Shown: in pieces, positions 2,058 to 64,000 of the stretch
How positions within the stretch are numbered: the first letter of the stretch is position 1
Layout: each line of letters opens with the position of its first letter
DNA from: Eledone cirrhosa
Taxonomy: Eukaryota
DNA: 64,000 bases
NCBI GenBank assembly: GCA_964016885.1
Contig: OZ024745.1
Coordinates: 89,900,001 to 89,964,000 of the forward strand
Reading direction: 5' to 3'
Notes under the pieces: generated by a model
Database searches by the model: none
Seen by the model: the letters and a program-made list of their open reading frames with translations, nothing else
What the model was told of the DNA's origin: nothing
Position numbers and translations under genes: made by a program

Positions 2058-2061
<4 letters not shown>

Positions 2062-3142: not shown

Positions 3143-3709
3143 TATATATATATATTAGTAAAAGGAAAAGAAAATGCTGACAAATTTATCCCAGTGAAAA
3201 ATAGTTTAATTAGGAATAAGTAAATATCAGTAATACGTATTGGTTAGTATTCAGTTTTAGTTTTAAGTATTTACCTGTTGCGCATTTCTAATGCTTTTTC
3301 AAAAATAATTTTGATATATAGCGCCCGTGATGTTTGATCTAATCTGATCAGTTTAGGAAATTCTACCTGTTTTATGTGAAAAAAGTTGCTCCAGATGTAT
3401 TAAGATTTGCTTGGTTGTTGAATGTAACGTGAATGAGCACTATAAGTTTCGCGCCAATTTGTGTTGCAAAAATTCTTGTAGTCAAAACAATTTTGCAAAA
3501 ATTCTTGTAGTCAAAACAATTTTGATTGGTCGGTAGAGGTCACGTGAATGTTCAAAATTGATCTTGCGCCAAATTTAGGTTTGTCGAAGAGTGTCCTTTT
3601 TCGCCTGATTGAGAAGTCACTGAAAAATAAGTCTTTTAGGACAAATACGTGTGTGTGTGTGTGTGAGGTAATGAGGTTCATTGTTGTGATAATGGTCAGT
3701 AGGGATGTG

Positions 3710-14376: not shown

Positions 14377-15322
14377 TCGGTCCTTTGTAGCCTCAGTACC
14401 CCCACCCCCTTCCCCTATTCTATGATAGAATTGGCCGACTCCGCTTTTTATAGCAGATGTGATAGACCCCGGATACTTGCTTTTTTATCCGATGACTGCC
14501 CCTTTTCCGTGCTTTCAACATTTCTTAGTGGTATCTTTGCTTTAATTTCTCGTATATCAGTATTTATTATTTGGGGGTGGGGGTGGGGGTTCTGAATTAA
14601 TTTTCCGTATAAAATTTTTCATATACTTCGTACGAGCATTTATGTAGTTTGCACTAGAATTTTTGTATCGTAGCGGCACCCTTAGAGATAGTATTAGTAT
14701 TCTTTTTCGGGTTTCTGAATTATTATTTTGTATTAGTTTATTTTTTGCACTGGGTGGTTGCTGGCCTGGTGCCTTGGGTAGAAACAATTATTTCGTATTA
14801 GTCTCGGGACTCTGGATTATTATTTCGTGGTAGTTTCTTTAGTATCTTGGCCCCGCACTTGTTGACCCGTCACCGTAAGATATACTCGATTGATTACTAC
14901 TACCTCTTAAAAGGGTCTCATTATAATTCCGTCCCACCTAGTACTTTTCTATAGTCTAGCAGTACCAGTGAGAGACTTGACGGCTGTCGTTAGGGAATAG
15001 TAACCAGAAATTGTTTTTTTTTAATATTTAATTGTTTTTTTAACATTCTCAGTATTCTTCTATATATTTACCCCATATTGTCTTACTTATTGTTTCGACT
15101 TCCTCCCCCTCCCCCTCCCTAGTATATTTCTTTGACCTCCTGCCCTGCTGTAGTTGGCACTATCAACGCACGACTGGGTTTCCTCCACCCCCTCTCCCTC
15201 TTTCTTCTACTGGCAGGTTCAGCTACCCCTTCCTTCCACAAATTGCCATGATAGAATTATGTGTCTCAACAACAAACTTTTGACCAATCCTTGTGACAAT
15301 CACTTTTAACATATATGGAATT

Positions 15323-15418
15323 ACCCTCTGAGAAGCTCGGCTATTCATATACCAGGATAAACATTTTCATTTAGTCCAAAATTAGCGGTCAAAACGGCTT
15401 GAGCTCAGCCCTCGGGGT
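15323..15418 (+). ncRNA. degenerate hammerhead-like motif in PLE4 pLTR (also 18881-18976)
   Basis: two-copy consensus ACCCC-CTGAGAA-..CGGCTA/TAGCCG..-GAAA-CGGCT..AGCCG-TC-GGGGT; each copy has disruptions. Confidence 0.4.
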
Positions 15419-15590
15419 CCTACTCGTTCCTATTACCCTAGTATTGAGTACTTTGGTGCGTTATGGTCCACCTGGTTCCTTACCACATTTCCTTCGTTAT
15501 ATAGCTCCTATTCCCGTAGTAGAGCACTTTCCGACCCTACCACGCCGTATCCAGACTTTTCCGCTAAGCTCAAGTTCTTTCACCCACACC

Positions 15591-17730
15591 ATGCGAAAAC
15601 ACAACATCGACTTCTCCACCAAGAACATCCCAGTTCCACCTAAAAAACTTTACCTTCGGATGCTCACGCAAAAAATCGACCTATTTACGAAAAGACTTAG
15701 ATGGAGAACTTTTTTCTACGACAGATATTGCGACAATGAGGACTTCGGTACCAAGGAGAGATTCGGATTTAATACCTACAAATATCCCCCTCCGAACCCT
15801 ATTCTCTCACCCTTCGAGAATGACCTTTTCCAACTAGTCAAGAAGATTAAATTCAAACCCAGACACAACCGATTCCTACAAAAACTCCGTAGCAACTTAA
15901 CAGAGTATGATAACACCATGACATCATGGTGCACTCGGATAAAACTGGTAACCTCTACTTCGTCAACCCCGACAGATACCACACACTGATCAGGAGCAGC
16001 CTAAACTCCACCTATAAAAAGGCTAACCACTCCTGCATCAAGGACATCAATCGAGATGGACAACAAATTACCTCCAGCCTCGGGGTCGCCGACCGCACGG
16101 AACCCCTAGAGCCACGGACACCCCACTTCACACTGAAGGACCACAAATCCGATTTCGACCGTAAACCTTCTATCAGGCTTATAAACCCAACGAAGTCCGA
16201 CATAGGGAGAATCAGCAAAAAAATCCTAGACCGCGTTATACCAAAAATTAAGCAACACGCCAGACTTAGCCTATGGGTCAACACCCAGGAAGTAATCTCA
16301 TGGTTCAGCAATATGGAGGACAAACGAGACACAAAATTCATCCAGTTTGACATAGAGAGTTACTATGCTTCAATTACCTTACCGCTACTTACGGCTGCCT
16401 TGGACTTTGCCGAAACACTTGCGCCCATCACCGACCAGGAAAGAAACATCATCCTCCACGCCAGGAAGACAGTCCTACTCTTCGACAACTACAAATGGAT
16501 AAAGAGAGATCCCGACTCACCCTTGGACGTCAGCATGGGCGCGACGGATTCGGCTGAGGTCACAGATCTTATAGGATTATTCATACTAGTTAAACTCACC
16601 GATATGTTTCCTGCATTCGGCGGTGGATTGTACCGTGATGATGGGCTCCTTATCCTTAAAGGGTACAATCCCAGTAGTACAGACCGGGTCCATAAACAAT
16701 TAATCAGCTTCTTCCGCGACTGGGGATTTAAAATAACACTACAAACGTCCCTGACCCGAGTAAACTTCCTGGACGTTACCCTTGACCTCGATAATGATCT
16801 GTACTACCCTTACAGGAAACCCAACGGCAACCTGCACTACATCCACCGCCGGTCAAACCATCCTAGGAACATCACCAATAACCTGGTTAAAAACATCTCC
16901 CTCCGCATATCTCGTTTGTCCGCTAATGAGCAGATATTCGAGGAACATGCACCTTATTACAACCAGGCCCTCAAGCGGAGTGGTTTCCGGGAGGAAATAT
17001 CCTACTGTCCAGCTTCCATTAGCGGAACCAGCAGGCGACACCGCCGCTCACGCAATGTAACATGGTTCAATCCTCCCCACAACGCCGAGGTGACAACTCA
17101 TATCGGGAAAATCTGCTTTAGGCTCATCGAAAAACACTTCCCACTACAACACCGCTACCACAACATAATTAACAAAAATACCATCAAACTCTCCTACAGC
17201 ACCACACCAAACTTTGCACAAAACATCGTCTCCTCTAACAACAAAAAATTCAACCCCTATGGAAGAAATAACCTAAATAGCAGTGGAGAGCCGACCAGGA
17301 GGTGCAACTGTCCTGATGGATCCATTTGCCCCCTCGACAACAGATGCAGAGATCGTAATGTGATCTACCAGTGCAACGTGAGGACGGACACCTCCAACAA
17401 AGCTTATATAGGATTAACTGCGTGTGACTTCAAGACCCGGCTATACCAACACAGACATACCTTCCGAAACCCGGCCCGGCATCACGCCACCACACTTTCG
17501 GGCCACATCTGGGACCTCAAGGATAACAATATTACCTATGATCTCACTTGGAGTTTACTGTCCAGAGCCAACTCTTACACGGGAGGACGCCGTCCGTGCA
17601 ATTTATGCTCGGAGGAAACTTTACAAATGCTGTTTTAGATGGACCAACTCCTAAACAAGAAAGACGAACTGGTAACTGCATGCAAACACAGATTGCGTAG
17701 GACTTACCTCGCCCTCAAACCCCATAATGA
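15591..17730 (+). pseudogene. PLE RT + GIY-YIG protein; one frameshift (~15920) and a late premature stop (17636)
   Basis: DFSTKNIP, RLINPTKSDIG, FIQFDIESYY, GLYRDDG, NFLDVTL, SNHP, WFNPP, CNC..CPL..C, VIYQC..YIGLT..FK.R, CNLC. Confidence 0.9.
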
Positions 17731-18986
17731 CCCGGGGGGTAGACAAGGGCTGTAACACCCCACTTGCCGACTTTGTAATGGGTAACCCATGCTGGCAAAG
17801 GTAGTCGTAAGATCTTCTTTTATATCTTTTTATCGCTTCCTCTATATTTCCTTCTTCCCCCCATCCCTTGCTAGTCCTTCCACCCCAGTCCTCTCTCTTT
17901 GTCGTCGTCCTTTTCACTTTCTCGCCTACCCGAGGCAGCCCCTCGGTCCTTTGTAGCCTCAGTACACCCACCCCCTTCCTCTATTCTATGATAGAATTGG
18001 CCGACTCCGCTTTTTATAGAAGATGTGATAGACCCCGAATACTTGCTTTCTTATCCGATGGCTGCTCCTTTTCCGTGCTTTCTACATTTCTTAGTGGTAT
18101 CTTTGCTTTAATTTCTCGTATATCAGTATTTTTTTTTGGGGGGGGGGGGGATTCTGAATTAATTTTCCGTATCAAATTTTTCATATACTTCGTACGAGCA
18201 TTTATGTAGTTTACACTAGAATTTTTGTATCGTACCGGCACCCTTAGAGATAGTAATAGTATTCTTTTTCGGGATTCTGAATTATTATTTCGTATTAGTT
18301 TATTTTTTGCACTGGGTGGTTGCTGGCGTTGTGCCTAGGGTAGAAACAATTATTTCGTATCGGGACTCTGAATTATTATTTCGTGGTAGTTTCTTTAGTA
18401 TCTTGGCCTCCCACTTGTTCACCCGTCACCGTAAGATATACTCGATTGATTACTACTACCTCTTAAAAGGGTCTCATTATAATTCCGTCCTACCTAGTAA
18501 ACTTTTCTATAGTCTAGCAGTACCAGTGAGAGACTTGACGGCTGTCGTTAGGGAATAGTAACCAGAAATTGTTTTTTTTTTATATTTAATTATTTTTTTA
18601 ACATTCTCGATATTCTTCTATATATTTACTCCATATTGTTTTACTTATTGTTTGGACTTCCTCCCCCTCCCCCTCCCTAGTATACTTCCTTGACCTCCTG
18701 CCCTGCTGTAGTTGGCACTATCAACTCACGACTGGGTTTCCTCCACCCCCTCTCCCTCTTTCTTCTACTGGCAGGTTCAACTACCCCTTCCTTCCACAAA
18801 TTGCCATGATAGAATTATGTGTCTCAACAACAAAATGTTGACCAATCTTTGTGACAATCACTTTTACCATATATGGAATTACCTCCCGAGAAGCTCGGCT
18901 ATTCATATACCAGGATAAAAATGTTCGTTTAGTCCACAATTAGCCGTCGAAACGGCTTAAGCTCAGCCGCCGGGGTCCTACTCGTT

Positions 18987-19061
<75 letters not shown>

Positions 19062-19066
<5 letters not shown>

Positions 19067-19915
19067 ACAAAGTAATACACAGACACATGCGAATATATAC
19101 ATCTACATGCATATACCCACATATATCTCTGAATTTGTGTGGTGGCAACCTTAATCGTTGTTGCTCTATGAAAAATAGGGACAAAATAATCTGAATGGTT
19201 TAGATTGATTCAATATCAGAGCTATATAATACATTATAAAGAAAGAAGAAACATTAGATATAAATAAAAAGATATAATATACCTAAATTCCCTCATTATC
19301 CTCGACTACGTAGTTTCGTGGCTATTATGCAAAAACATTACATCATAGAGATGCAGTATTTTTGTGAGGTTTGCCGACTTATCAAGAGGATAGCTCAGTT
19401 AGAGTTATAAAACACGTCCGTAGGACGCGAGATAGAATCCCGAAAGGTGGAGGGGGAACTTATCACGTGATACAGCGGTCAAGAAACAGAGCTAAGCCTC
19501 TTACAACCAAGAGAAAAATACCACCAAAGGCTGAGGGGGTGTTTATGTCAACGTCGTAGAAGAGTTGGCTAGGATGGCGAGAAGTGTGATTAGTGAAAGC
19601 TTAACAGCAGTCACTATACTTCAGTTGTTACTCTACCGTAGGGAGTTATAAACAATACAAAGAAATACACAGACACATGCGAATACATACATATACATGC
19701 ATATACCCACATATATCCCTGAATTTGTGTGGTGCCAACCTTAACCGTTGTTACTCTATGAATAATAGGGACAAAATAATCTGAATGGATTAGATTGATT
19801 CAATATCAAAGCTATATAATACATTATAAAGAAAGAAGAGACCGAGGATAATGAAGGAATTTAGGTATATTATATATTTTTATTTATATCTAATGTTTCT
19901 TCTTTCTTTATAATG

Positions 19916-19920
<5 letters not shown>
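19062..19920 (-). mobile_element. family C (~590 bp unit) HHR element: 1.3 units plus short inverted arm
   Basis: 19062 is repeated at 19652; HHR 19299-19390(-) with TTGATAA core; inverted arm 19843-19920; homologous to the 28907-30880 array. Confidence 0.8.
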
Positions 19921-20000
<80 letters not shown>

Positions 20001-20114: not shown

Positions 20115-20762
20115 TATATCAACTAGAAATAGATTGACATATATATATATATATAAAATAAACATATGAAACAATCACAGCGAATAATTTGTAAAGTGTG
20201 TAAGCACACATAGCTAGGTAGGTAACTAATTAAAGTTTAACTAGAACTTCAAATATAGATACCTTTTAAAATGATTAATCTCCTTTTTATATATTTCTTT
20301 AAATAAAAAATATATTTCACCAATTAATCGGTAAATCACAGTAGTCAAATTCGGATGGTCACCAAAGGAGAAGATCCAACCATCTGTGTTTACATAGCAA
20401 ATGCAAATCTGTCAATAGAAATAGATTGATGTATATATATATATAAAATAAACATATGAAACAATCACAGGCAATAATTTGTAAAGTGTGTAAGATGGTT
20501 GGATCTTCTCCTTTGGTGACCATCCGGGATTTGAGTACTGTATTTTACCGATTAATTGGTGAAATATATTTTTTATTTGAAGAAATATATACAAAGGAGA
20601 TTAATCATTTAAAAAGGTATCTATATTTGAAATTCTAGTTAAACTTTAATTAGTTACCTACCTAGCTATGTGTGCTTACACACTTTACAAATTATTCCCT
20701 GTGATTGTTTGATATGTTTATTTTATATATATATATATGTCAATCTATTTCTAGTTGATATA
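20115..20762. mobile_element. ~290 bp-unit HHR element, palindromic
   Basis: 20124 is repeated at ~20415; 20493-20760 is the reverse complement of 20117-20385. Confidence 0.8.
20507..20600 (+). ncRNA. hammerhead ribozyme with G3:C8-swapped core (GTGACCA)
   Basis: TCTCCTTTG-GTGACCA-stem II-GAAA-TATATT..AATATA-TA-CAAAGGAGA; mirror copy at 20279-20371(-). Confidence 0.6.
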
Positions 20763-20779
20763 TATATATGTATATATAT

Positions 20780-21160
20780 AATTAGTTTTGCGAGGTTTTT
20801 GATATGAAATCGTGTGTCGAAACAAATATTGTTATACTTGGGGAGGGTCATATTTGTGTAATAATACTGCCAGAATTAATAACAGAACACACTCACTGTT
20901 TGGTTGGCTTTCGCTTCTGTGTCTTTTATATCGGTTAATTTAGTTTATTCGGTCCTCAATGTTACCATTGACTGACTAACGGTCAAAAATACAGATATAA
21001 TAGAGACACAAACATATATATAGTCTAACAAAGTTCTTTCGTTGCACATCTGCAACATCGTCAGTGGTGCTATTATGTTTCCTCCTATTATGAGTGTGTT
21101 CTGTTATTAATTTTGGCAATATTATTACACAAATATAACTCTCCCCAAGTATAACAATAT
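20780..21160 (-). mobile_element. family H non-autonomous PLE1-like pLTR element with HHR and short inverted arm
   Basis: CTGACGA-T-GTTGCA gatg TGCAAC-GAAA on - (~21025-21070); shares its 3' end (atgaccctccccaagtataacaata) with PLE1. Confidence 0.7.
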
Positions 21161-21340
21161 ATATATATATATATATAAATGGAAAAAATGAAATTTCATT
21201 TCTCACTCTTAGTACAGCTGATACTTAAATATAAGTATGTATACGTACATACATATATGTATACAGACGTACAGTAGTATGTATATACATACATGCACAC
21301 ATATATATATATATATGTACGTATGGGTTTACCGAACATT

Positions 21341-28604: not shown

Positions 28605-28633
<29 letters not shown>

Positions 28634-28638
<5 letters not shown>

Positions 28639-30879
28639 TTATAAACACACAGATACATGCGGACACACACATATATACATGAATGCATCCGCACCCAACT
28701 GTGAGTTAAGGGTGCCAACTTCACCGATGTTGCTCAATGAATGACTGGGACAGACCAATTCAGTTTGAACCAGACTGAACCAGTATCAGAGTTAAAAATA
28801 CATTATGAAGAGAGAAGAAACATTTAGATATAATTAGTAATAAAATGTATCATACCTAAACTGCTCCTAAATTCCTCAACTACGTAGTTTCGTGGCATAA
28901 ACAAAACGTCGTGTAGACGCGTTCTTGAGACTAGTAAAATGAGGTATCCTCTTGATAAGTCGGCAGACCTCGCAAGGACTCTATATCTTTCATATATTGT
29001 TTTTGTTTATGCCACGAAACTACGTAGTCGAGGAATTTAGGAGCAGTTTAGGTATGATACATTTTATTACTAATTATATCTAAATGTTTCTTCTCTCTTC
29101 ATAATGTATTTTTAACTCTGATACTGGTTCAGTCTGGTTCAAACTGAATTGGTCTGTCCCAGTCATTCATTGAGCAACATCGGTGAAGTTGGCACCCTTA
29201 ACTCACAGTTGGGTGCGGATGCATTCATGTATATATGTGTGTGTCCGCATGTATCTGTGTGTTTATAAATATATTAATAACTCCCTCTGGTCGAGCAATC
29301 TTTGAAGTGTGGGGACAACTGGAAAGCTTCCATTACTCATACTTCTCGCCTTCTTCACTACCTCTTCTGCGGCCTCGATATGAATACCCCCTCCGCCTCC
29401 GTGGTATTTTCTTCGTGGTTATAAGAGGCTTAGCTCTGTTTCTCGACCGTTATATCGCGTGACTATCTCCCCCTCCGCCTTTTGGGATTCTTTCTCACGT
29501 CGTGTAGACGCGTTCTTGAGACTAGTAAAATGAGGTATCCTCTTGATAAGTCGGCAGACCTCGCAAGGACTCTATATCTTTCATATATTGTTTTTGTTTA
29601 TGCCACGAAACTACGTAGTCGAGGAATTTAGGAGCAGTTTAGGTATGATACATTTTATTACTAATTATATCTAAATGTTTCTTCTCTCTTCATAATGTAT
29701 TTTTAACTCTGATACTGGTTCAGTCTGGTTCAAACTGAATTGGTCTGTCCCAGTCATTCATTGAGCAACATCGGTGAAGTTGGCACCCTTAACTCACAGT
29801 TGGGTGCGGATGCATTCATGTATATATGTGTGTGTCCGCATGTATCTGTGTGTTTATAAATATATTAATAACTCCCTCTGGTCGAGCAATCTTTGAAGTG
29901 TGGGGACAACTGGAAAGCTTCCATTACTCATACTTCTCGCCTTCTTCACTACCTCTTCTGCGGCCTCGATATGAATACCACCTCCGCCTCCGTGGTATTT
30001 TCTTCGTGGTTATAAGAGGCTTAGCTCTGTTTCTCGACCGTTATATCGCGTGACTATCTACCCCTCCGCCTTTTGGGATTCTTTCTCACGTCGTGTAGAC
30101 GCGTTCTTGAGACTAGTAAAATGAGGTATCCTCTTGATAAGTCGGCAGACCTCGCAAGGACTCTATATCTTTCATATATTGTTTTTGTTTATGCCACGAA
30201 ACTACGTAGTCGAGGAATTTAGGAGCAGTTTAGGTATGATACATTTTATTACTAATTATATCTAAATGTTTCTTCTCTCTTCATAATGTATTTTTAACTC
30301 TGATACTGGTTCAGTCTGGTTCAAACTGAATTGGTCTGTCCCAGTCATTCATTGAGCAACATCGGTGAAGTTGGCACCCTTAACTCACAGTTGGGTGCGG
30401 ATGCATTCATGTATATATGTGTGTGTCCGCATGTATCTGTGTGTTTATAAATATATTAATAACTCCCTCTGGTCGAGCAATCTTTGAAGTGTGGGGACAA
30501 CTGGAAAGCTTCCATTACTCATACTTCTCGCCTTCTTCACTACCTCTTCTGCGGCCTCGATATGAATACCCCCTCCGCCTCCGTGGTATTTTCTTCGTGG
30601 TTATAAGAGGCTTAGCTCTGTTTCTCGACCGTTATATCGCGTGACTATCTCCCCCTCCGCCTTTTGGGATTCTTTCTCACGTCGTGTAGACGCGTTCTTG
30701 AGACTAGTAAAATGAGGTATCCTCTTGATAAGTCGGCAGACCTCACAAGGACTCTATATCTTTGATATATTGTTTTTGTTTATGCCACGAAACTACGTAG
30801 TCGAGGAATTTAGGACCAGTTTAGGTATGATACATTTTATTACTAATTATATCTAAATGTTTCTTCTCTCTTCATAATG

Positions 30880-30882
<3 letters not shown>
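28634..30882 (+). repeat. 591-bp tandem array (3.3 units, 28907-30880) plus inverted arm 28634-28906; retrozyme-like family C
   Basis: exact 591 period; one HHR per unit at 28947, 29538, 30129, 30720; flanked by (TA)n. Confidence 0.9.
28947..29034 (+). ncRNA. hammerhead ribozyme with U3:A8 covariant core
   Basis: TCCTC-TTGATAA-GT(C)GGCA..TGCCAC-GAAA-CTACGTAG-TC-GAGGA; predicted cleavage after 29029. Confidence 0.75.
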
Positions 30883-35435: not shown

Positions 35436-35856
35436 TATATATATGAACACCTAAAATTTTTCATTAAATCCATTAAAATATTAATAATAAACACAGTTCT
35501 AATCATACGCTATATATATATATATAAATATAAGTAATTAATACCGTATAAATGGTACAAAGACTGTTTATGTAAAATGTATTTCTCAACAGAGTATTGA
35601 ATACTTAGGCGAAATTCAAAACGAAGAGTGATAAAATTTCAAGCAAAGAGTTTAATTAGGTAATGACTTACAAATTTGTTTCAGTATATAGACAAAGCCT
35701 GAAGCGCTAATTATAATAATTAGTTAATAATATTACAAAATATATTAATATTATATTAAATATATACTGAAACAAATTTGTAAGTCATTACCTAATTAAA
35801 CTCTTTGCTTGAAATGTTATCATTCTTCGTTTATATATATATATATATATATATAT

Positions 35857-36997
35857 ATTTGGGGAGGGTCATATTTGCGTAATATTGCCAGAATTAATAA
35901 CAGAACACACTCACTGTTTGGTTGGTTTTCGCTTCTCGCTGTCTTTTATATATATATATCTGCGATCTAACTTACTCGGTCCTCAATGTTGCCATTGACT
36001 GACCGGCGGTCAAAAATAATACAGATACAATATAGACAAACACATATATATATAGTTTACATAAATCTTTCGTTGCACATCTGCAACATCGTCAGTGGTG
36101 TTATATTCATTGTTCCTCCTGTTGTGTTGTATGTCTACGCCATTTTTTTTGTTCAGTCTGTCTATATATTTATTTATTTATTTGCTTGTTTGTTTATCTT
36201 ATTTTATTTTGTCTTCTTTGCGCATGCGTTTGCGTGTGTGTATAGTGTTATGTGTGATGTGTGACTAGTGTGTATAGTGTTGTGTCTGCTGGGTGACTAG
36301 TGTGTGTTTATGTGCTTGTGTATGTATTTATTTATCTTATTTTATTTTATTTAATTTACTTATTTATTTATACTTCTCTTAGGTCAGTGTTGTTTGTTTG
36401 GGTGTTGTTGTTTATAGTATAAATAAATAAGTAAATTAAATTAAATTAAATAAGATAAATAAATACATACACAAGCACATAAACACACACTAGTCACCCA
36501 GCAGACACAACACTATACACACTAGTCACACATCACACATAACACTATACACACACGCAAACGCATGCGCAAAGAAGACAAAATAAAATAAGATAAACAA
36601 ACAAGCAAATAAATAAATAAATATATAGACAGACTGAACAAAAAAAATGGCGTAGACATACAACACAACAGGAGGAACAATGAATATAACACCACTGACG
36701 ATGTTGCAGATGTGCAACGAAAGATTTATGTAAACTATATATATATGTGTTTGTCTATATTGTATCTGTATTATTTTTGACCGCCGGTCAGTCAATGGCA
36801 ACATTGAGGACCGAGTAAGTTAGATCGCAGATATATATATATAAAAGACAGCGAGAAGCGAAAACCAACCAAACAGTGAGTGTGTTCTGTTATTAATTCT
36901 GGCAATATTACGCAAATATGACCCTCCCCAAATATAACAATATCTGTTTCGACACACGATTTCATATAAAAAACCTCGCAAAACTAATTCATCGCCG

Positions 36998-37000
<3 letters not shown>
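35857..37000. mobile_element. family H, near-perfect ~1.1 kb palindrome
   Basis: 35857-36375 mirrors 36415-36933 (identical ORFs on both strands); HHR cores at ~36055-36100(-) and 36690-36735(+); (TA)n on both sides. Confidence 0.85.
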
Positions 37001-37386
<386 letters not shown>

Positions 37387-39414: not shown

Positions 39415-42400
39415 AAATTACACAATTATCAAAGTTATGTTCAAATCATTTAATTGGTGACAATCTTTTCTCCCAAACTTTAGTTTGGAATCATTGGAGC
39501 ATTATCAATGTTTGTAGATATCATTAACCTCCTATTCAAATGAACAATCATATAGATACATATATATTGATATTGTGAAGAAAAGTTTCGTATTTACAGG
39601 GTGGAATGGATGCGAAATATATTATACGAGAACTGTACAAAAATTCAAATTAAAAGCACAGAGTGGAATACATGCGACAGATAATACAAGGGAATAGCCT
39701 GATAATTAAAGAGGCATTGAGAAAGAATGAGGACACTAGCAGTACATATGCAAGCGTGTAGAAAGTGCACATGCGTTAGTCATATATATATGCGAAGGAA
39801 ACAAGCAAAGGTATTAGGCATATATAAATAAATAAATAAATTAATACTGTATAGCAAAGGTATCACACAAAATACCAAGCAAATGTGTTAGTGTATTAAC
39901 ACTTTATGGCGAATGTAATGTGATGATAGTGTTCAAATTTCTGTGTGTTGAGAAATTCAAAGTTATTGTTGTTTTTTCCATTACATATGTTAAATTATAT
40001 TTTAGTTAATGTTTATATTGAATGTTTTTAGTTAGTTACAGCAATGGATTGTAAATTGGTCATATTGTATTCTTATTCATGGATTAGAGTTGTTCAACAG
40101 GTAGTTTTTCTAACGGTTTAATTTCTGGAAGTGAGTATGAGATCCAAGATTAAGGGGAGCTAATGCGTAAAGGGAGGTAACTAGCTAATTAAATTAAATT
40201 AAAATATATAGGAAAGTATCAATTTTTAAATTCTTTGCTCTAATACACATTATATTGTGATACAAGTGAATCTCTTTTACATAATGTTATATATTTATAC
40301 TTAATTTTAATACAGTCTATTTTCCTATAATATATTAAAAGTCTCATTAGATTGTTATTTATCCATTACTGGGCAAGATATAAGTTATGGAAATATGTAT
40401 AGCTGGTTACATGTCCAATTAGTTAAATTTATTTGTGCAATAATATACATTATATTGTGTTAAAAGTTAATCCCTTATATACAATGCTATTAATTTCATT
40501 ATAAATGTATATATAATTTATTATTACATATTACATTAAATGTCTCTACATATTATATATCCATTACTGTATATAATATAAGTAATCTATAGTAGTTATA
40601 TTAAAAGGTGGTAACTTTATGTTTATTTCTAATAGTTCTTGTAGAGTATAAGGTTAGAGATAAATAGGAGTTGTGTAGAGGAAAGATCTGATGAAAGAGT
40701 GTGTTGCTGTGGGGGCTGATAAGTCCTAGAGGTGAAGTGTTAATGGTGGTGAGGAATTCAAATCTCACATTGTTATATACTAGCAGCTAGTTTGAAAGCT
40801 ATGGAACGAGTGTCGGTAGCGGTGCTGGCATGAGGAAAACCTCTCTGATTTTTTATTTAAGAGGTCTAGTTTCAAAAGTATTATACTACGGGTCCCTAGA
40901 AGATAGAAGTTACACAATTTATTCGGTGGTTTATATGATGTGGCCCTACCTACTACTTTCCATTGAAGTGTATATTGTCTATTCCTAGTTTTCAGAGAGT
41001 GTATGTAGCTAGATAAAGAAGTGGAGTTGGCTAGATTGTGTTTTTTGAATGAGTGGAGGTGCGAGTTGTATCACGTCTTGAAGCAGTTCGAAGTAGAGCC
41101 AATATATGTTTTACAAGAGTTGTTTGCGTTCACCGTTCATGAGTAAATGATGTCTTTGATTAAGCAATTATTACCTAAGGGGCAAGTTCTATTAGTTCTA
41201 TAGTTACATTTATTCTGGATGTTTGCTTGCCGGTTACTATGTTGTGTAGAAGTCTGGTTGCTAGGGATAGCATTAGGGTAATGATGGTTGTCATTCCTAT
41301 TGTTATTGATTTCATTAGTGCTATTACCATTATTACTATTACTACTAGGATTTACAGGTACTAAATTTACCTCCTGTTGTGTTTTAATTAGTTGGAAATA
41401 ATAATTAATCTTCCTTTTATTACTACTAGCTATATGGTACGCGATGTTAGGTGTGGTAGAATGAGAGATTTTAATGGTATTTTTATTGATAAGATTATGG
41501 TATGATTATGGCCGGATTGGAAATGTTTTTCCAGGATTGAGAAGAAAGCCTTACGTAAAGCCTTAGATTGAAAGGGGGATTGAATACACAACATAGTAAC
41601 CGGCAAGCAAACATCCAGAATAAATGTAACTATAGAACTAATAGAACTTGCTCATTGGGTAATAATTGCTTAATCAAAGACATCATTTACTCATGAACGG
41701 TGAACGCAAACAACTCTTCTAAAACATATATTGGCTCTACTTCGAACTGCTTCTAGACGAGATACAACTCGAACCTCCACTCTTTCAAAAAACACAATCT
41801 AGCCAACTCCACTTCTTTATCTAGCTACATACACTCTCTGTAAACTAGGAATAGACCATATACACTTCAATGTGAAGTAGTATGTAGGGCCACATCGTAT
41901 AAACCACCGAATAAATTGTGTAACCTTTGTCTTCTAGAGACCCGTACTATAATCTTTTCGAAACTAGACCTACTAAATAGAAAATCTGAGGTGTTTTTCT
42001 CATGCCAGAACCACTACCGATACTCGTTCCATAGCTTTAAACCTAGCTGCTAGTATATAACAATGTGAGATTTGAATTCCTCACCACCATTAACACTTCA
42101 CCTCTAGGACTTATCAGCCCCCACAGCAACACACTCTTTCATCAGCTCTTTCCTCTACACAACTCCTATTTACCTCTAACCTTATACTCTACAAGAACTA
42201 TTAGAAATAAACATAAAGTTACCACCTTTTAATATAACTACTATAGATTACTTATATTATATACAGTAATGGATATATACTATGTAGAGACATTTAATGT
42301 AATATGTAATAATAAATTATATATACATTTATAATGAAATTAATATATAATGGATTAACTTTTAACACAATATAATGTATATTATTACACAAATAAATTT

Positions 42401-43402
42401 AACTAATTGGACATGTAACCAGCTATATATCTTTCCATAATTTATATCTTGTCCAGTTATGGATAGATAATCTAATGAGACCTTTAATGTATTATAGGAA
42501 AATAGACTGTATTTCAAATTAAGTATAAATATATAACATTATGTAAAAGAGATTCACTTGTATCACAATATAATGTGTATTAGAGCAAATAATTTAAAAA
42601 TTGATACTTTCCTATATATTTTAATTTAATTTAATTAGCTAGTTACCTCCCCTTACGCATTAGCTCCCCTTAATCTTGGATCTCATACTCACTTCCAGAA
42701 ATTAAACCGTTAGAAAAACTACCTGTTGAACAACTCTAATCCATGAATAAGAATACAATAAGACCAATTTACAATCCATTGCTGTAACTAACTAAAAACA
42801 TTCAATATAAACATTAACTAAAATATAATTTAACATATGTAATGGAAAAGACAACAATAACTTTGATTTTCTCAACACACACAAATTTGAACACTATCAT
42901 CATATTACATCCGTCATACATTTTTAATACACTAACACATTTGCTTGGTATTTTGTGTGATACCTTTGCCATACAGTATTAATTTATTTATTTATTTATA
43001 TATACCTAATACCTTTGCTTGTTTCCTTCGCATATATATGACTAACGGATGTGCACTTTCTACACGCTTGCATATGTACTGCTAGTGTCCTCATTCTTTC
43101 TCAATGCCTCTTTAATTATCAGACTATTCCCTTGTATTATCTGTCGCATGTATTCCACTCTGTGCTTTTAATTGGAATTTTTGTACAATTCTCGTATAAT
43201 GTATGTCGCATCCATTCCACCCTGTAAATACGAAACTTTTGTTCACAACATCATTATATATGTATCTATATGATTGTTCATTAGAATAGGAGGTTAATTA
43301 TATGTACAAATATAATGCTCCAATGATTCCAAACTAAAGTTTGGGAGAAAAGATTGTTAGCAATTAAATGATTTGAACATAACTTTGATAATTGTGTTAT
43401 TT
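39415..43402. mobile_element. 4-kb palindrome of two diverged 3' PLE copies (GIY-YIG + 1.3 kb 3' UTR), head-to-head
   Basis: 39415-41240 mirrors 41593-43400; + strand 41620-42050 reads KCNYR..C..NC..IIYS..KTYIGST..CNLC with stops; decayed HHR at 43314-43365. Confidence 0.85.
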
Positions 43403-46044: not shown

Positions 46045-47600
46045 TGTTTGGAAGTCATGGGTTTGGCATAATGGGAATGGAGGATTTGTTTTTGGTTATT
46101 AATGGTATCTAACCAGAGCTCTGTGTCTAGTACAGGTAATCGATGGTTGGGGTGTTTACTTGGGTAGTCTATAGTAACTCTAATACTCTGGTGGATGGAG
46201 TTAGCTATTTGCTGGATGCTTTCCATTGTGTTTTTCTCTAGTTCCTGACTGTTCTCTAGTGGGGGTGTCTTAACTACGATGTTTATATCATCAACGTAGC
46301 GGGAGTCCCCCCCCCCCTATGACTTCCAAACATCTGATCCACCGAAACTCGGCCGTTTCGGACCATACCAAAATCAACATACTGATTGCGGATTTGGTAC
46401 GGGTGATGAGAAACGTGTCCCGCATGTGCAACCCCGAAGAACTAGAGAGACACATACAACACTTCATCCACCGTATGCAGTTCTCTGGTTACAATCAGAG
46501 AGATGAAATCAGAGTGTATAGAGGAGCCAGAACCAAATGGGAAAAAATGGTAAATAATGACATAAATGGGACCTGCCCCTTGTATAGGAGCAAATTTTGG
46601 AATAGAATAGAAAGAACTAGGAATAAGGCTAATAGAATAAACTCATGGTATGATAGCAATAAATGCCAGAGTGTAATGTTCATCGATACAACCCCTAGAG
46701 GTGAATTAGCTTACAAATTTACAAGGGCCCTAGATAAACATAAACTCAATATTAAGATAGTAGAAAGACCAGGTACCTCCGTAAAAACACTTATTCGCAA
46801 GACATACCCTTTTCAAAGACCCCCATGTATAGATAAGAAATGTATAACCTGTAAAATAAGCCCCCATATTAACTGTAAAACTAGAAATGTAGTGTATAGC
46901 ATAAGATGTACTGAAGGACAATGTAGAGACAAAAATATAGTGTACATAGGTGAGACAGTTCGTAGTGTAGGGCAACGGATAAACGAACACTGGCGAGACC
47001 CTCAAGATAGTAAAGAATCATCTGTACTCTACCAACATGCTAAAATAGAACACAAGGCTAAATTAGAGAACATAGAAATAAAAATAGAATCTACACACAG
47101 AAAAGACGCAATGTTTAGACAAATCACAGAGGCAATAAACATAAAAGAATTACAACCAAAATTAAATAGAAAATATGAGTGGAACAGCAACATCACAACT
47201 TACAATTAAGGACAAAATGAAAACACACACACACATAGAACAAACAACCAACCAGTAACATGTAAATAAACAAATAAATAAATGAACATAAACACACACA
47301 GACACCCGGATGTGGCGCATGCGCAGTCTGAGCACACAACACACACACAGAAACAAAATGGCGTAGGACAAAACAAAGGAGAGGCACAAAAACAAAGAAA
47401 AGAATCCCCAGTCACTGAAGAGGTCACAGAATGTGTGACGAAAGAACTTTGACAATATATAAACAACTATCTGGTTGTGGAACCAACCAACCAGAAATTT
47501 ATAAATTTATTCCTAAATTTATAAATTTATTATAATAAATTGAAGTAAAAGCAAATGGTGCGTGTGTTTTTTTATTGGCAACATGACCCTCCCAAAGTAT

Positions 47601-48317: not shown

Positions 48318-48361
<44 letters not shown>

Positions 48362-48366
<5 letters not shown>

Positions 48367-51085
48367 GAATATAGACATAGAATATTCGAAAATATTCTGT
48401 ATGTTTATAATAAACATTTTGAAGACCTAATCGCTATAGAATAGAATACGTCACGTATTACAATTAGATTCTCGATAAAAGCAAGGGAAGTAATCTACGC
48501 GTTTCATTCTTGTTAGAAATCATCAGGACTACATATCCAGTGCTTTTATCGAGAATGACACAGCTAGAGACTTATAGAATACTTAGCTGTGTACAGGAAC
48601 TGGTTTGAAAGAGCGGTTGCCGGTCCGGCAGAAATTAGAAATTGGAATAAATGCTCTGAAATAGCGATATATATGTGAATATAGACATAGAATATTCGAA
48701 AATATTCTGTATGTTTATAATAAACATTTTGAAGACCTAATCGCTATAGAATAGAATACGTCACGTATTACAATTAGATTCTCGATAAAAGCAAGGGAAG
48801 TAATCTACGCGTTTCATTCTTGTTAGAAATCATCAGGACTACATATCCAGTGCTTTTATCGAGAATGACACAGCTAGAGACTTATAGAATACTTAGCTGT
48901 GTACAGGAACTGGTTTGAAAGAGCGGTTGCCGGTCCGGCAGAAATTAGAAATTGGAATAAATGCTCTGAAATAGCGATATATATGTGAATATAGACATAG
49001 AATATTCGAAAATATTCTGTATGTTTATAATAAACATTTTGAAGACCTAATCGCTATAGAATAGAATACGTCACGTATTACAATTAGATTCTCGATAAAA
49101 GCAAGGGAAGTAATCTACGCGTTTCATTCTTGTTAGAAATCATCAGGACTACATATCCAGTGCTTTTATCGAGAATGACACAGCTAGAGACTTATAGAAT
49201 ACTTAGCTGTGTACAGGAACTGGTTTGAAAGAGCGGTTGCCGGTCCGGCAGAAATTAGAAATTGGAATAAATGCTCTGAAATAGCGATATATATGTGAAT
49301 ATAGACATAGAATATTCGAAAATATTCTGTATGTTTATAATAAACATTTTGAAGACCTAATCGCTATAGAATAGAATACGTCACGTATTACAATTAGATT
49401 CTCGATAAAAGCAAGGGAAGTAATCTACGCGTTTCATTCTTGTTAGAAATCATCAGGACTACATATCCAGTGCTTTTATCGAGAATGACACAGCTAGAGA
49501 CTTATAGAATACTTAGCTGTGTACAGGAACTGGTTTGAAAGAGCGGTTGCCGGTCCGGCAGAAATTAGAAATTGGAATAAATGCTCTGAAATAGCGATAT
49601 ATATGTGAATATAGACATAGAATATTCGAAAATATTCTGTATGTTTATAATAAACATTTTGAAGACCTAATCGCTATAGAATAGAATACGTCACGTATTA
49701 CAATTAGATTCTCGATAAAAGCAAGGGAAGACGTATTCTATTCTATAGCGATTAGGTCTTCAAAATGTTTATTATAAACATACAGAATATTTTCGAATAT
49801 TCTATGTCTATATTCACATATATATCGCTATTTCAGAGCATTTATTCCAATTTCTAATTTCTGCCGGACCGGCAACCGCTCTTTCAAACCAGTTCCTGTA
49901 CACAGCTAAGTATTCTATAAGTCTCTAGCTGTGTCATTCTCGATAAAAGCACTGGATATGTAGTCCTGATGATTTCTAACAAGAATGAAACGCGTAGATT
50001 ACTTCCCTTGCTTTTATCGAGAATCTAATTGTAATACGTGACGTATTCTATTCTATAGCGATTAGGTCTTCAAAATGTTTATTATAAACATACAGAATAT
50101 TTTCGAATATTCTATGTCTATATTCACATATATATCGCTATTTCAGAGCATTTATTCCAATTTCTAATTTCTGCCGGACCGGCAACCGCTCTTTCAAACC
50201 AGTTCCTGTACACAGCTAAGTATTCTATAAGTCTCTAGCTGTGTCATTCTCGATAAAAGCACTGGATATGTAGTCCTGATGATTTCTAACAAGAATGAAA
50301 CGCGTAGATTACTTCCCTTGCTTTTATCGAGAATCTAATTGTAATACGTGACGTATTCTATTCTATAGCGATTAGGTCTTCAAAATGTTTATTATAAACA
50401 TACAGAATATTTTCGAATATTCTATGTCTATATTCACATATATATCGCTATTTCAGAGCATTTATTCCAATTTCTAATTTCTGCCGGACCGGCAACCGCT
50501 CTTTCAAACCAGTTCCTGTACACAGCTAAGTATTCTATAAGTCTCTAGCTGTGTCATTCTCGATAAAAGCACTGGATATGTAGTCCTGATGATTTCTAAC
50601 AAGAATGAAACGCGTAGATTACTTCCCTTGCTTTTATCGAGAATCTAATTGTAATACGTGACGTATTCTATTCTATAGCGATTAGGTCTTCAAAATGTTT
50701 ATTATAAACATACAGAATATTTTCGAATATTCTATGTCTATATTCACATATATATCGCTATTTCAGAGCATTTATTCCAATTTCTAATTTCTGCCGGACC
50801 GGCAACCGCTCTTTCAAACCAGTTCCTGTACACAGCTAAGTATTCTATAAGTCTCTAGCTGTGTCATTCTCGATAAAAGCACTGGATATGTAGTCCTGAT
50901 GATTTCTAACAAGAATGAAACGCGTAGATTACTTCCCTTGCTTTTATCGAGAATCTAATTGTAATACGTGACGTATTCTATTCTATAGCGATTAGGTCTT
51001 CAAAATGTTTATTATAAACATACAGAATATTTTCGAATATTCTATGTCTATATTCACATATATATCGCTATTTCAGCGCATTTAT

Positions 51086-51090
<5 letters not shown>
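48362..51090. repeat. 310-bp tandem array, two ~4.4-unit arms inverted at 49730/49731; 8 complete HHRs
   Basis: period 310 (48421, 48731, 49041, 49351); HHR on - at 48468, 48778, 49088, 49398 and on + at 49936, 50246, 50556, 50866; (TA)n on both flanks. Confidence 0.93.
49936..50024 (+). ncRNA. type-I hammerhead ribozyme closed by a 16-bp stem
   Basis: ATTCTCGATAAAAGCA..GTAGTC-CTGATGA-T TTCT aaca AGAA T-GAAA-CGCG-TA-GATTAC..TGCTTTTATCGAGAAT. Confidence 0.85.
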
Positions 51091-51138
<48 letters not shown>

Positions 51139-54929: not shown

Positions 54930-54974
<45 letters not shown>

Positions 54975-54980
<6 letters not shown>

Positions 54981-55292
54981 ATACTTGGGGAGGGTCATAT
55001 TTGTGTAATATTGCCAGAATTAATAACAGAACACACTCATGTGTTTGTGTCTATATTGTATCTGTATTATTTTTGGCCGCCGGTCAGTCAATGGCAACAT
55101 TGAGGACCGAATAAATTAGATTACCGATATAAAAGACACAGAAGCGAAAAGCGAAAACCAACCAAACAGTGAGTGTGTTCTGTTATTAATTCTGGCAATA
55201 TTACACAAATATGACCCTCCCCAAGTATAATAATATTTGTTTCGACACACGATTTCATATAAAAAACCTCGCAAAACTAATTCAGCGCCGTT
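54975..55292. mobile_element. family H mini palindrome
   Basis: 54975-55040 inverts 55170-55235; homologous to 36745-36998. Confidence 0.7.
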
Positions 55293-55392
55293 ATATATAT
55301 ATATGTGTGTGTGTGTTACTCTTTTACGCTTTTACGTGTTCCAGCCATCCGGTTGAGGCCATCCGGTTGAGGCCATGCTGGGGCACCGCCCT

Positions 55393-58350: not shown

Positions 58351-59187
<837 letters not shown>

Positions 59188-59608: not shown

Positions 59609-59630
59609 CATATATATATATATATATATA

Positions 59631-59744
59631 GGTTGAAATAAAATGAAAACGAAATTTCATTTCTCACTCTTAGTACGGCACTTACTTAAATGTAAGTATG
59701 TGTGTATACGTACATACATATATGTATACAGACGTACAGTAGCA

Positions 59745-59824
<80 letters not shown>

Positions 59825-60262
59825 TATACATACAGGTACACATACATATATGCACGTATCAGTTTAGCGGACGCTTATTATAACGCCGCTTTGTTCGTTT
59901 GTAAACAAACTGAACAGCCTGAATTTTTATGCCGTACGGTGTTAAGGCAACCACGTCACCTTTTTGTTCAACACTGACACAGGAACGATGTACTAGTTTC
60001 AAGCTTTTAGCTATCATCAGCACCGTATACCCATCTGCCAGATAGTTGAACGTTCGAAAGTATATATTTTCCTTATGAAAATTAACGGCTGAGCAGCCTA
60101 ATTTGCATATCGAGTGAGCTAAGTCGGTCAGGCATACCGAAAACGATAAGTTGAAATAAAATGAAAACGAAATTTCATTTCTCACTCTTAGTACGGCACT
60201 TACTTAAATGTAAGTATGTGTGTATACGTACATACATATATGTATACAGACGTACAGTAGCA

Positions 60263-60315
<53 letters not shown>

Positions 60316-60385
60316 TTACAGGTACAGATACATATATGCACGTATCAGTTTAGCGGACGCTTATTATAATGCCGCTTTGTTCGCA
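59631..60385 (-). mobile_element. family K (~520 bp unit) HHR element
   Basis: unit start repeats at 59631 and 60150; HHR 59985-60026(-): ACGGTG-CTGATGA-T AGCT aaa AGCT T-GAAA-CTAG-TA-CATCGT. Confidence 0.8.
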
Positions 60386-61459: not shown

Positions 61460-61499
<40 letters not shown>

Positions 61500-61507
<8 letters not shown>

Positions 61508-62073
61508 CAAATAACGAAACGAAATTAAATTTCGTTTCGCTTCTAACTCACTTTTGTATGACTGACGCTTAAACAATTAAGTTAAAGTGTACATCTACAT
61601 ATGTATACGGAAGTATTAGTATGCATATAAATACACACATGTATACATATGTACATGTACTCAGCTTTTCACTAGACACTTTACAGTGAGTGTCAGCTAG
61701 TCTGTATGTAACCACACAGGCGGACCGGGTTTTAGAGTCATACGAGTTTTCAAGGAAACACATTTCCTCTATTCTCCAGAGGGCCAGACAGGAATATTGG
61801 ACTAGTTTCGATGTTATTACATCTCATCAGCAATATTTACCCATCTTCCGGCTTCTCTGGAGAATTGTAAAAGCACATATCGTTATATGCTTTTTCTATG
61901 AAAATTAGTAGTGGGTAGACCAATTTGCATAGAACGTGAGTCATTGTACGCACCGGTTCAGCGGAAACGATAAAAACAAATAACGAAACGAAATTAAATT
62001 TCGTTTCGTTTCCTTGAAAACTCGTATGACTCTAAAACCCGGTCCGCCTGTGTGGTTACATACAGACTAGCTG
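61500..62073 (-). mobile_element. family K relative (~470 bp unit) with canonical HHR and inverted arm
   Basis: 61793-61837(-): AATATTG-CTGATGA-GATGT aata ACATC-GAAA-CTAG-TC-CAATATT; 62010-62073 inverts 61694-61758. Confidence 0.85.
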
Positions 62074-62074
62074 C

Positions 62075-63506
62075 CTAAATGAAAAATTTACCATTATCTC
62101 TAATCTAGATTCTATAATAAATAGACGTACAGATTTGTTTTCTATCTGCCTGCATAAATTCCATAGGACTTTTCACAAAGTATACAGCTAATATTCAATT
62201 CTTTATCAATTTAGAATCTTTTCTCAAAGGCACATATACACACACCTCTTTAAATTATACCCATCTTCCTACCTTACTTCAAAGGGCATTATACACTCTA
62301 TAATACTTGTTTACTCATTACCCTCATTCTATCTTCACCTTGTAAAATCCTTCATAACATATACATTTGTTTTTTTGACGTTAGAATATTCATCCGCAAT
62401 TATTATTTTTTTCTCTCCATCATCAAACTTTTTAATCTCAATACATTAACTCTCTCTCCTTCTTTTGACGCTAGAATATTCATTCTTAATACATATTAAC
62501 TCTTTCTTCGCACATATTATCAATTCCTTCAATATACAAACCTTAACTTCACATTATTTTTCTCAAATCATCTAATACACAAACCTTAATAATATTTTAA
62601 TACATATTAACTCTTTCTTCGCACATATTATCAATTCCTTCAATATACAAACTTTAACTTCACATTATTTTTCTCAAATCCTTCAACACGCAAACCTTAA
62701 TCATTTTTTCTCTTCATTAATTTTGAAATTGCCATAATACTTATAAACATACACCTTTTTGACGTTAGAATATTCATCCGCAATTATTATTTTTTCTCTC
62801 TATCTTCAAAATTTTTAATCTCAATACATATCAACTCCCTCTCTTTCCTCGTACATATTTTTTCCCTTCGTTAATTTTCAAATTCTTTTAATTTATACAT
62901 TATCTTCCAACGGTTCTCAACCTCTCTATGTAAAACAATATATCTTTTCTCAGTTATAAAAACTATCTCTTTCTCTCTATCACCCATCTCTCCCTCTCCA
63001 CCTTCACTCTCATCTCCTCCCCTTTTTTCATCCTTTCCACCACCCCTCTCTAAATAAAATTTTTTTTTTTTTTTTTCCTCGTACATATTTTTCCCTTCGT
63101 TAATTTTAAAATTCTTTTAATTTATACATTATCTTCCAACGGTTTTCAACCTCTCTATGTAAAACAATATATCTTCTCTCAGTTATAAAAACTATCTCTT
63201 TCTCTCTATCACCCATCTCTCCCTCTCCACATTCACTCTCATCTCCTCCCCTTTTTTTAATCCTTTCCACCCCCCCCCCTCTCTAAATAAAATATTTTTC
63301 CCAATATCACACATCAATCTAAAACTACTTTTCAAATGTTGATTTAAAACTGCACTATCCACAAGTGTTTTTTAGCCTTCATATCATGTTCTCCTGTTTT
63401 ATCTGATGAAAACACAAATATTATTGCATGATGATGTTTGTTTTTGAAATGCGCATAATAAAATACATGGAACTCCTTTAACCATCTTTTGATCTTATAT
63501 ATTATA
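62075..63506 (+). mobile_element. long family A copy with internal tandem subrepeats and terminal HHR (63396-63464)
   Basis: homology to 2600-3140. Confidence 0.75.
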
Positions 63507-64000
63507 TACATATATATATATATGTATATAGTGGTAGAACACTGGAAGGTAATGACCGTTGTAGTAGAGCACTCAGTCCATGGGACGAGTTAGGTAGAAG
63601 TGGTTACACAACAGTTAGTTCAACATACCAAGATCAATTGTTTCACCTTAGCGGATCCGCAGCTCGTAATATGTATATATATATATATATATATACGTGT
63701 TTTTCTAAGATGTCCATTGATAATGGTTGGTTTCTTTTGCTCATCGTATAAACATATACGACATATTTTATAAATTTTATTCGTACATACATACGTACAT
63801 ACGTGCATACGTACGTACATACATGGTGGCTGCCAACTCGTTTTCGAGTACGGCCACTACTTTATATCCATGTAGGAGAACCCCTACGATGCGCTGAACA
63901 AGTGTGACATTTTAGTCCAGCCAGCGACTTGAAAACTCTGGTACAAACACTACACTCGTGACAATTATTGACACATAGTGCTGGGCCCATGGTACCATGT

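Follow-up and report, generated by a model that had tools for sequence, protein, structure and literature searches.

An Inverted Pair of 310-nt Repeat Arrays in (TA)n

The window, by which we mean the whole 64-kb stretch of DNA analyzed, holds two adjoining arrays of period 310, each of 4.4 copies, which TRF placed at 48357-49730 and 49730-51091. The arrays form the arms of a palindrome: 48357-49692 pairs with 49730-51065 over 1336 nt with 100% complementarity, across an unpaired spacer of 37 nt (49693-49729) that is part of the left arm. The left arm lies on the minus strand, reads leftwards in the RNA sense from 49730 to 48357 (or 48366), and measures 1365-1374 nt. The right arm lies on the plus strand and measures 1360-1362 nt; both ranges reflect the way in which the overlap with TA is counted. 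These lengths bear out the near-equal palindromic arms of ~1369 and ~1360 bp described in an earlier note on this DNA. Compared with a single unit, each arm carries one mismatch, at 48365 in the left arm, which may already be target TA, and at 51077 in the right arm, 14 nt before its end. The arms meet at 49730 in a single shared G with no inserted bases. At its outer end (51057-51091, plus strand), the right arm alone carries a tail of 26-35 nt of unit sequence.

Both arms run outward into microsatellites, as the earlier note had also seen for its (TA)n boundaries. On the left is (TA)13 (48340-48366), preceded by a (CT) run and overlapping the unit's own ATATATAT stretch, and on the right is (AT)23 (51090-51136). 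The flanks are not mirror images of each other: when 2 kb from each side was compared, a single match was found, to a dispersed repeat of 120 nt at 87.5%. No terminal direct repeats beyond the 310-nt unit itself are present at the locus. With 49731 taken as phase 0 of the unit, the left arm runs from phase 271 to phase 85-94 and the right arm from phase 309 to phase 120-121. In both arms, the RNA 3' end faces outward into (TA)n, and the two 5' ends meet centrally. The outer ends differ by 26-35 nt in phase, defining a "short" 3' site on the left and a "long" 3' site on the right, and the inner ends differ by 38 nt. Relative to the predicted ribozyme cut, the left arm starts at +5 nt and the right arm at +43 nt. 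All 8.8 units are essentially identical to a common form, in keeping with the recent event proposed earlier; such near-perfect identity would imply a recent insertion, and conversion from arm to arm could also homogenize the units.

A Canonical Hammerhead Motif and a Stable Circular Fold

Every one of the eight complete units carries a hammerhead motif, four in each arm. Scanning the whole window gave 24 matches; of 20 block shuffles, one gave 2 matches and the other 19 gave none. At 49960-50002 (plus strand), the motif is of type I, with a helix I of 6 bp, CUGAUGA at 49966, a helix II of 4 bp that opens with a U.U mismatch, GAAA at 49987, and a minimal palindromic helix III consisting only of an A-U and a C-G pair round a 2-nt loop (palindrome ACGCGU). 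The predicted cut follows A49996 at a GUA site, with 49997 as the first base after it. The motif repeats every 310 nt, with mirror copies at 49462-49420 minus 310n, placing predicted cuts before 49997+310n on the plus strand and before 49425-310n on the minus strand. The available text of PMC4209133 describes a "canonical" metazoan type I form with a helix I of 6 bp, a helix II of 4 bp, and a helix III of 1-2 bp with a palindromic loop, states that the weak helix III needs a second copy for efficient cleavage, and notes a U3-A8 core as a variant. By motif, the hammerhead of the 310-nt unit is this "canonical" form, as the earlier note had read from CUGAUGA, GAAA, and the GUA site in each unit, and cleavage is predicted.

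Beyond helix I come a UAU bulge and a 3-bp helix Ib, followed by a perfect 16-bp helix (49936-49951/50009-50024), which closes a predicted ribozyme domain at 49936-50024 (plus strand). The earlier note had proposed folding the unit as a circle, and the circular fold is stable, with a minimum free energy (MFE) of -67.8 kcal/mol and a z score of -4.6; none of 100 shuffles was as low. This fold recovers both the extension of stem I into the 16-bp helix, with pair probabilities of 0.97-1.0 at 14 of its 16 pairs, and all three of the further hairpins that had been pointed out. A ribozyme-competent circular fold lies 1.5 kcal/mol above the MFE, and in the circular ensemble helix II reaches a pair probability of only ~0.15. 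Folding alone cannot name the strand, because the fold of the antisense strand is just as good (z score of -5.3); the motif scan found no hammerhead on the antisense strand. The unit is 34% GC, its longest stop-free frame is 59 codons when read round the circle, and it holds no reverse transcriptase (RT) or GIY-YIG open reading frame (ORF). Rfam returned no matches at gathering score anywhere in the 64-kb window.

A Dispersed Genomic Family with Two Fixed End Sites

Between 76 and 100% of the unit's sampled words are present in 20 public sequencing runs from 17 organism labels and 16 studies; no RNA run is among them, so they have no bearing on expression. We compared contigs for 4 of the 24 listed runs, using a single unit (49921-50230) without flanks as the query, with the species of the runs not fixed relative to that of the window. 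In run X2, which possibly represents another individual or species than the window and gives no copy number, 590 contigs match the unit, 355 of them at 99% or more, 148 at 95-99%, and 87 at 90-95%. A variant with A>G at 49981 accounts for about a quarter of the summed depth. Among the loose ends listed for this run, nine contigs leave the unit into TA behind 50135, which is the short site of the left arm, and one leaves into TA behind 50166, near the long site of the right arm and in the region matching its tail. In run X2, copies of the 310-nt unit form a genomic family that varies in sequence, is dispersed, and uses the two end sites seen in the arms. The dispersed copies that the earlier note had asked about are therefore present, varying in sequence and leaving into TA at fixed sites. 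That note had also placed the arm ends at different phases of the unit; the offsets at both ends stand, and the phases are not arbitrary, because the outer ends fall at the two sites where unit copies in run X2 give way to TA.

Two runs with other organism labels, X1 and X3, each yielded one 340-nt contig that closes on itself as a flawless 310-nt circle, at a depth of 10-12 and with neither flanks nor variants. These contigs look like trace DNA of a high-copy repeat, arriving through index hopping or as diet or environmental DNA, and we give horizontal transfer low odds because a single variant-free, flankless contig at that depth is all that either run shows. Screens of public assemblies for viroid-like circles should be wary of such contigs. 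Almost none of the unit's words occur in runs X23 and X24, which come from another sample (label H); this is no proof of absence, and 0 of 12,836,656 reads of raw Hi-C run X21 (label J) were placed on the unit, a count that is not a test of presence. Exact patterns of 27-30 nt from the unit had no matches in metagenome contigs, viral contigs, or prokaryote genomes. It is highly improbable that the unit also exists as a free, species-crossing circle, that is, as a viroid-like animal RNA written into the genome from both strands by a pair of enzymes from a Penelope-like element (PLE).

PLE Remnants, Hammerhead Repeats, and Other Inverted Pairs in the Window

A 574-amino-acid ORF remnant at 15914-17638 (plus strand) carries the motifs given for Hydra-clade PLEs in the clade description of PMC8557442 (DKT, YRDD, CxCX5C, VIYQ..YIG, and CxxC), the VIYQ..YIG motif being a GIY-YIG-like core. 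The ORF had no Pfam or PDB match, and its homologues have no informative names. By its motifs, it could represent the kind of helper that acts in trans on the 310-nt RNA. No PLE sharing sequence with the 310-nt unit was found within the 64-kb window, this ORF and the PLE ends included. A second ORF, at 46274-47209, gave a weak GIY-YIG match below the Pfam cutoff. The 574-amino-acid remnant belongs to a Hydra-type PLE remnant at 14377-18988, in which a 1056-nt direct repeat (94%) flanks the ORF and which is inserted into an older two-armed PLE at 13239-14376. The motif scan found no hammerhead in the repeats of the Hydra-type remnant.

Sequence comparison, motif scanning, and folding identified a diverged relative of the 310-nt unit at 58508-59186 (minus strand), consisting of ~1.9 units that are 77% identical over 157 nt and carrying a U3-A8 hammerhead in an 18-bp helix. 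Like the right arm, the relative runs into (TA)n at the long 3' site, and it keeps an 8-bp hairpin through changes on both sides. As judged from the two sequences, predicted structure is conserved where sequence is not. Taken to 59334, the relative combines the U3-A8 core with a stable helix III, which suggests ribozyme exchange within one scaffold. The ribozyme of its second unit contains an internal duplication, and the 5' 150 nt of the relative match no explained part.

Several further families in the window carry hammerheads or inverted arms, and the long closing helix of the ribozyme is found in three of the other families. A second retrozyme-like family, at 28628-30882 and 19057-19924, has units of 591 and 590 nt that are ~72% identical to each other, with a U3-A8 hammerhead, a long helix II insert, and a palindromic helix III; each insertion lies between TA flanks and includes an inverted arm and a one-sided tail of ~170 nt. 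Repeats with a single hammerhead lie at 59628-60383 and 61492-62073 (minus strand), with units of about 470-520 nt, an ACUAGU helix III, and a long closing helix, and the former has the UAU bulge and the U.U mismatch of the 310-nt unit. One family accounts for three two-armed insertions at 35847-36998, 54965-55310, and 20740-21170, all in TA, in which one arm ends about 50-60 nt past the other. Another, at 2058-3150, 37053-37278, and 62841-63509, has a hammerhead-like motif near its 3' end with a long helix II and a UGCGCA helix III, and its copy at 2058-3150 is two armed with a tail of ~90 nt. At 39416-43401 lies a 4-kb, head-to-head, decayed PLE-like element whose arms are 94% alike over 1834 nt around a 336-nt spacer and which ends in a 290-nt TA tract.

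Apart from the 310-nt palindrome, we examined 14 inverted pairs in the window. In seven of them both arms end in TA and a single arm carries a tail, of about 50-60, 90, 95, or 170 nt, with the orientation of three of these seven inferred from the tail alone. Two of the remaining seven end at the same site, one is interrupted, and four have no clear pattern. The pairs at 2.1-3.1, 35.8-37.0, and 39.4-43.4 kb have arms of roughly equal length, and five other pairs have very unequal arms; those of the 590/591-nt family measure about 780 versus 76 nt and 1970 versus 280 nt.

Two-Ended Priming as the Probable Origin of the Palindrome

According to the available text of PMC8557442, PLE insertions are often partly tandem, carry an inverted copy with a 5' truncation at their 5' end, have a tail of 30-40 bp at one end only, and in the Naiad and Hydra clades target (TA)n; the origin of the inverted arms and one-sided tails is stated there as unresolved. 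By analogy, the palindrome of 310-nt units is this ordinary PLE insertion form, with an inverted 5'-truncated arm, a one-sided tail, and a (TA)n target, the lower bound of its 26- to 35-nt tail falling slightly below the published range. Pairs of hammerheads on opposite strands 100-700 bp apart have already been noted for Schistosoma PLEs (PMC4209133). The text available for PMC11167929 reports that a purified PLE protein, that of Poseidon from Anolis carolinensis, nicks and extends both strands of AT-rich DNA in vitro from two adjacent RNA start sites, the interval between which is the tail. The protein is predicted to be a dimer.

We consider the locus to be a single insertion of a repeat of the non-LTR retrozyme type, with two outward arms in (TA)n, written by a PLE RT primed at nicks in both strands, and would put the probability of this reading at about three in four. 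Reverse transcription from both target ends, as the earlier note had proposed, fits arms whose RNA 3' ends both face (TA)n and whose ends match family-wide sites in run X2, and we favor it because of the nicking and extension of both strands in vitro. The anatomy, the two fixed 3' end sites, the dispersed family, and the structure kept in the diverged relative are observed, and we infer the remaining steps from them. Tandem copies would be transcribed, and the hammerhead, probably as a dimer formed via the palindromic helix III, would cut the RNA at GUA. A PLE protein would then bind the RNA near unit phase 85-125 and nick TA on both strands. One cDNA would start at the short site and give the left arm; the other would start at the long site and give the right arm with its tail. 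The two cDNA 3' ends would be joined at 49730 and then filled in. The short site coincides with the AUAUAUAU stretch, whereas priming was not homology based in the account of PMC11167929.

The form of the template is less certain than the two-ended priming. A template with a ribozyme-cut 5' end could be a multimer in which some sites had stayed uncut. It could also be a cut monomer in which helix I keeps the two ends together and the enzyme jumps the nick. The leading enzyme may have run off the template end, with 5 nt lost, and the trailing enzyme stopped 38 nt behind it, leaving equal arms. In the alternative, with the same two-ended priming, each enzyme would have gone 4.4 times round a covalently closed 310-nt circle, and we regard this template as a serious possibility, although one that falls short of even odds. 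A closed circle would explain the identity of all units, would suit the stable circular fold, and would not require four ribozymes in a row to stay uncut; moreover, circular transcripts of related repeats are known from coral, mussel, and axolotl, and PMC7229834 proposes a circular template. On the other side, a closed circle offers no end, whereas the left arm begins 5 nt past the predicted cut, a coincidence expected for one or other arm about 4% of the time, and the inverted arm at 19843-19918 begins within 1 nt of its own predicted cut; a circle also leaves the equal arms without a reason. Because of the start of the left arm, we lean, if only slightly, toward the ribozyme-cut 5' end. Across five ribozyme-bearing insertions, 6 of the 10 arms have their start between -1 nt and +15% of a unit relative to the predicted cut (nominal P of 0.001), a count for which the cutoff was chosen after seeing the data, the arms are not independent, and two of the periods rest on short terminal repeats; the arms of the insertion at 28.6-30.9 kb start 29 and 124 nt before its predicted cut. 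Against the cut step stand the finding in PMC11167929 that ribozyme cleavage is dispensable for insertion, the in vitro cleavage of only one of nine predicted retrozyme dimers in the text available from bioRxiv 10.64898/2026.07.22.740005, and the low probability of helix II. The similarity of the outer offset to the inner offset suggests two enzymes that moved together until the leader ran off, an idea that we keep as a hypothesis because the arms are roughly equal in three other pairs of the window and very unequal in five.

An unlikely alternative to two-ended priming is that a single target-primed cDNA snapped back and copied itself, making the second arm a copy of the first. Fold-back would directly give near-equal arms and a short 37-nt loop, but in its simple form it fails because the loop lies on the left arm and the tail on the right. 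The position of the loop would mean that the left arm came first, yet the right arm has 26-35 nt that are absent from the left, as well as a C where the left end has a T. Fold-back begun from the right arm would offer only 1090 nt of template for a 1365-nt arm. An extra register slip or a later deletion would be required, and one-sided tails recur in 7 of the 14 other inverted pairs.

Two further explanations are each very improbable. An event at the DNA level, either an inversion within an array or two insertions in the same TA tract with later loss of the DNA between them, would draw on the repeated insertions that TA tracts take, as seen in the nested elements at 20.1-21.2 and 35.6-37.3 kb; however, inversion in an array of single orientation cannot yield two 3' ends at the family's end sites, the junction at 49730 has no leftover TA, and the arms are identical in sequence. 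An assembly or amplification artifact that joined two arrays, or a chimeric read, would be in line with the trouble that tandem and inverted PLE structures cause in assemblies (PMC8557442), with microsatellites at both flanks, and with the junction not being found among the joints of run X2 or the 6 of its 26 loose ends listed, a run that may represent another individual; against it, the two flanks do not mirror each other, overlap joining would not produce an out-of-register junction such as this one, the outer end of each arm falls at a genuine end site of run X2, and the window is full of older, diverged copies with the same layout.

Comparison with Known Systems

Classical satellite DNA forms long arrays in blocks with random ends; the 310-nt repeat forms a short array with defined ends at this locus and has dispersed ends in run X2, and it may form long blocks elsewhere. 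It resembles viroids and viroid-like circular RNAs in size, in having a hammerhead and no ORF, and in its stable circular fold, and differs from them in being a TA-flanked genomic family with a ribozyme on one polarity only, a branched fold, and no Rfam match. A viroid-like replicon with no genomic copy was rejected on the TA-flanked genomic copies in the window and in run X2.

In L1 twin priming, two target-primed cDNAs are joined at their 3' ends to give an inverted 5' part, with the two cDNAs covering non-overlapping, adjacent stretches of the RNA and with poly(A) and a target site duplication (TSD). Here, the starts of the two arms are at most 35 nt apart in phase, and both arms contain the same sequence. 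Classical twin priming was rejected, the 5' end of the right arm being 214 nt away in phase from the priming site of the left arm.

The element fits the published non-LTR retrozymes, an assignment made by features and not by sequence comparison with known families. Its unit size, 34% GC, lack of a long ORF, and type I motif in each unit match the definition in the available text of PMC7229834. As in the repeats of coral and mussel and in satellite 2 of axolotl and newt, a tandem unit within 150-450 bp has one hammerhead, low GC, and no ORF, the circular fold is self-paired, arrays are short, and PLEs lie alongside; the U.U mismatch at the base of helix II is shared with axolotl HHR_Amex2. Retrozymes are derived from PLE pLTRs according to the text available from bioRxiv 10.64898/2026.07.22.740005, which gives most families seven units or fewer. 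Head-to-head multimeric arms, tails, and (TA)n targeting are found here and in none of the parts of these accounts available to us, and we found no description of a head-to-head multimeric retrozyme insertion in the open literature, the scope of our search.

With PLEs (Hydra, Naiad, and Neptune in the available text of PMC8557442) the element shares the inverted 5'-truncated arm at the 5' end, the one-sided tail, a (TA)n target with no readable TSD, tandem copies, and a hammerhead in the repeat. Unlike them, it has no RT or endonuclease ORF, its tail is 26-35 nt, and both arms are multimers of equal length. Like Poseidon in PMC11167929, it lies in an AT-rich target and has two adjacent internal start sites that define a tail, with extension of both strands observed for Poseidon in vitro; unlike it, Poseidon is autonomous, primes without homology, and can dispense with ribozyme cleavage, and the inverted arms are not explained in the text available for that study. 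Both ingredients, the non-LTR retrozyme unit and the PLE form of inverted arm plus tail, are already published, and the element class is not new. The mobilization of retrozymes by PLEs has so far rested on co-occurrence and pLTR similarity, and in the 310-nt copy a retrozyme shows all the marks of PLE insertion and is nearly free of mutations, with one mismatch per arm. The copy also has a built-in ruler in its unit phase, predicted cut site, and two start sites, and the phases of arm ends across this family can separate a circular from a cut template and two-ended priming from fold-back. The combination of known ingredients in a pristine copy makes this insertion a useful mechanistic specimen.
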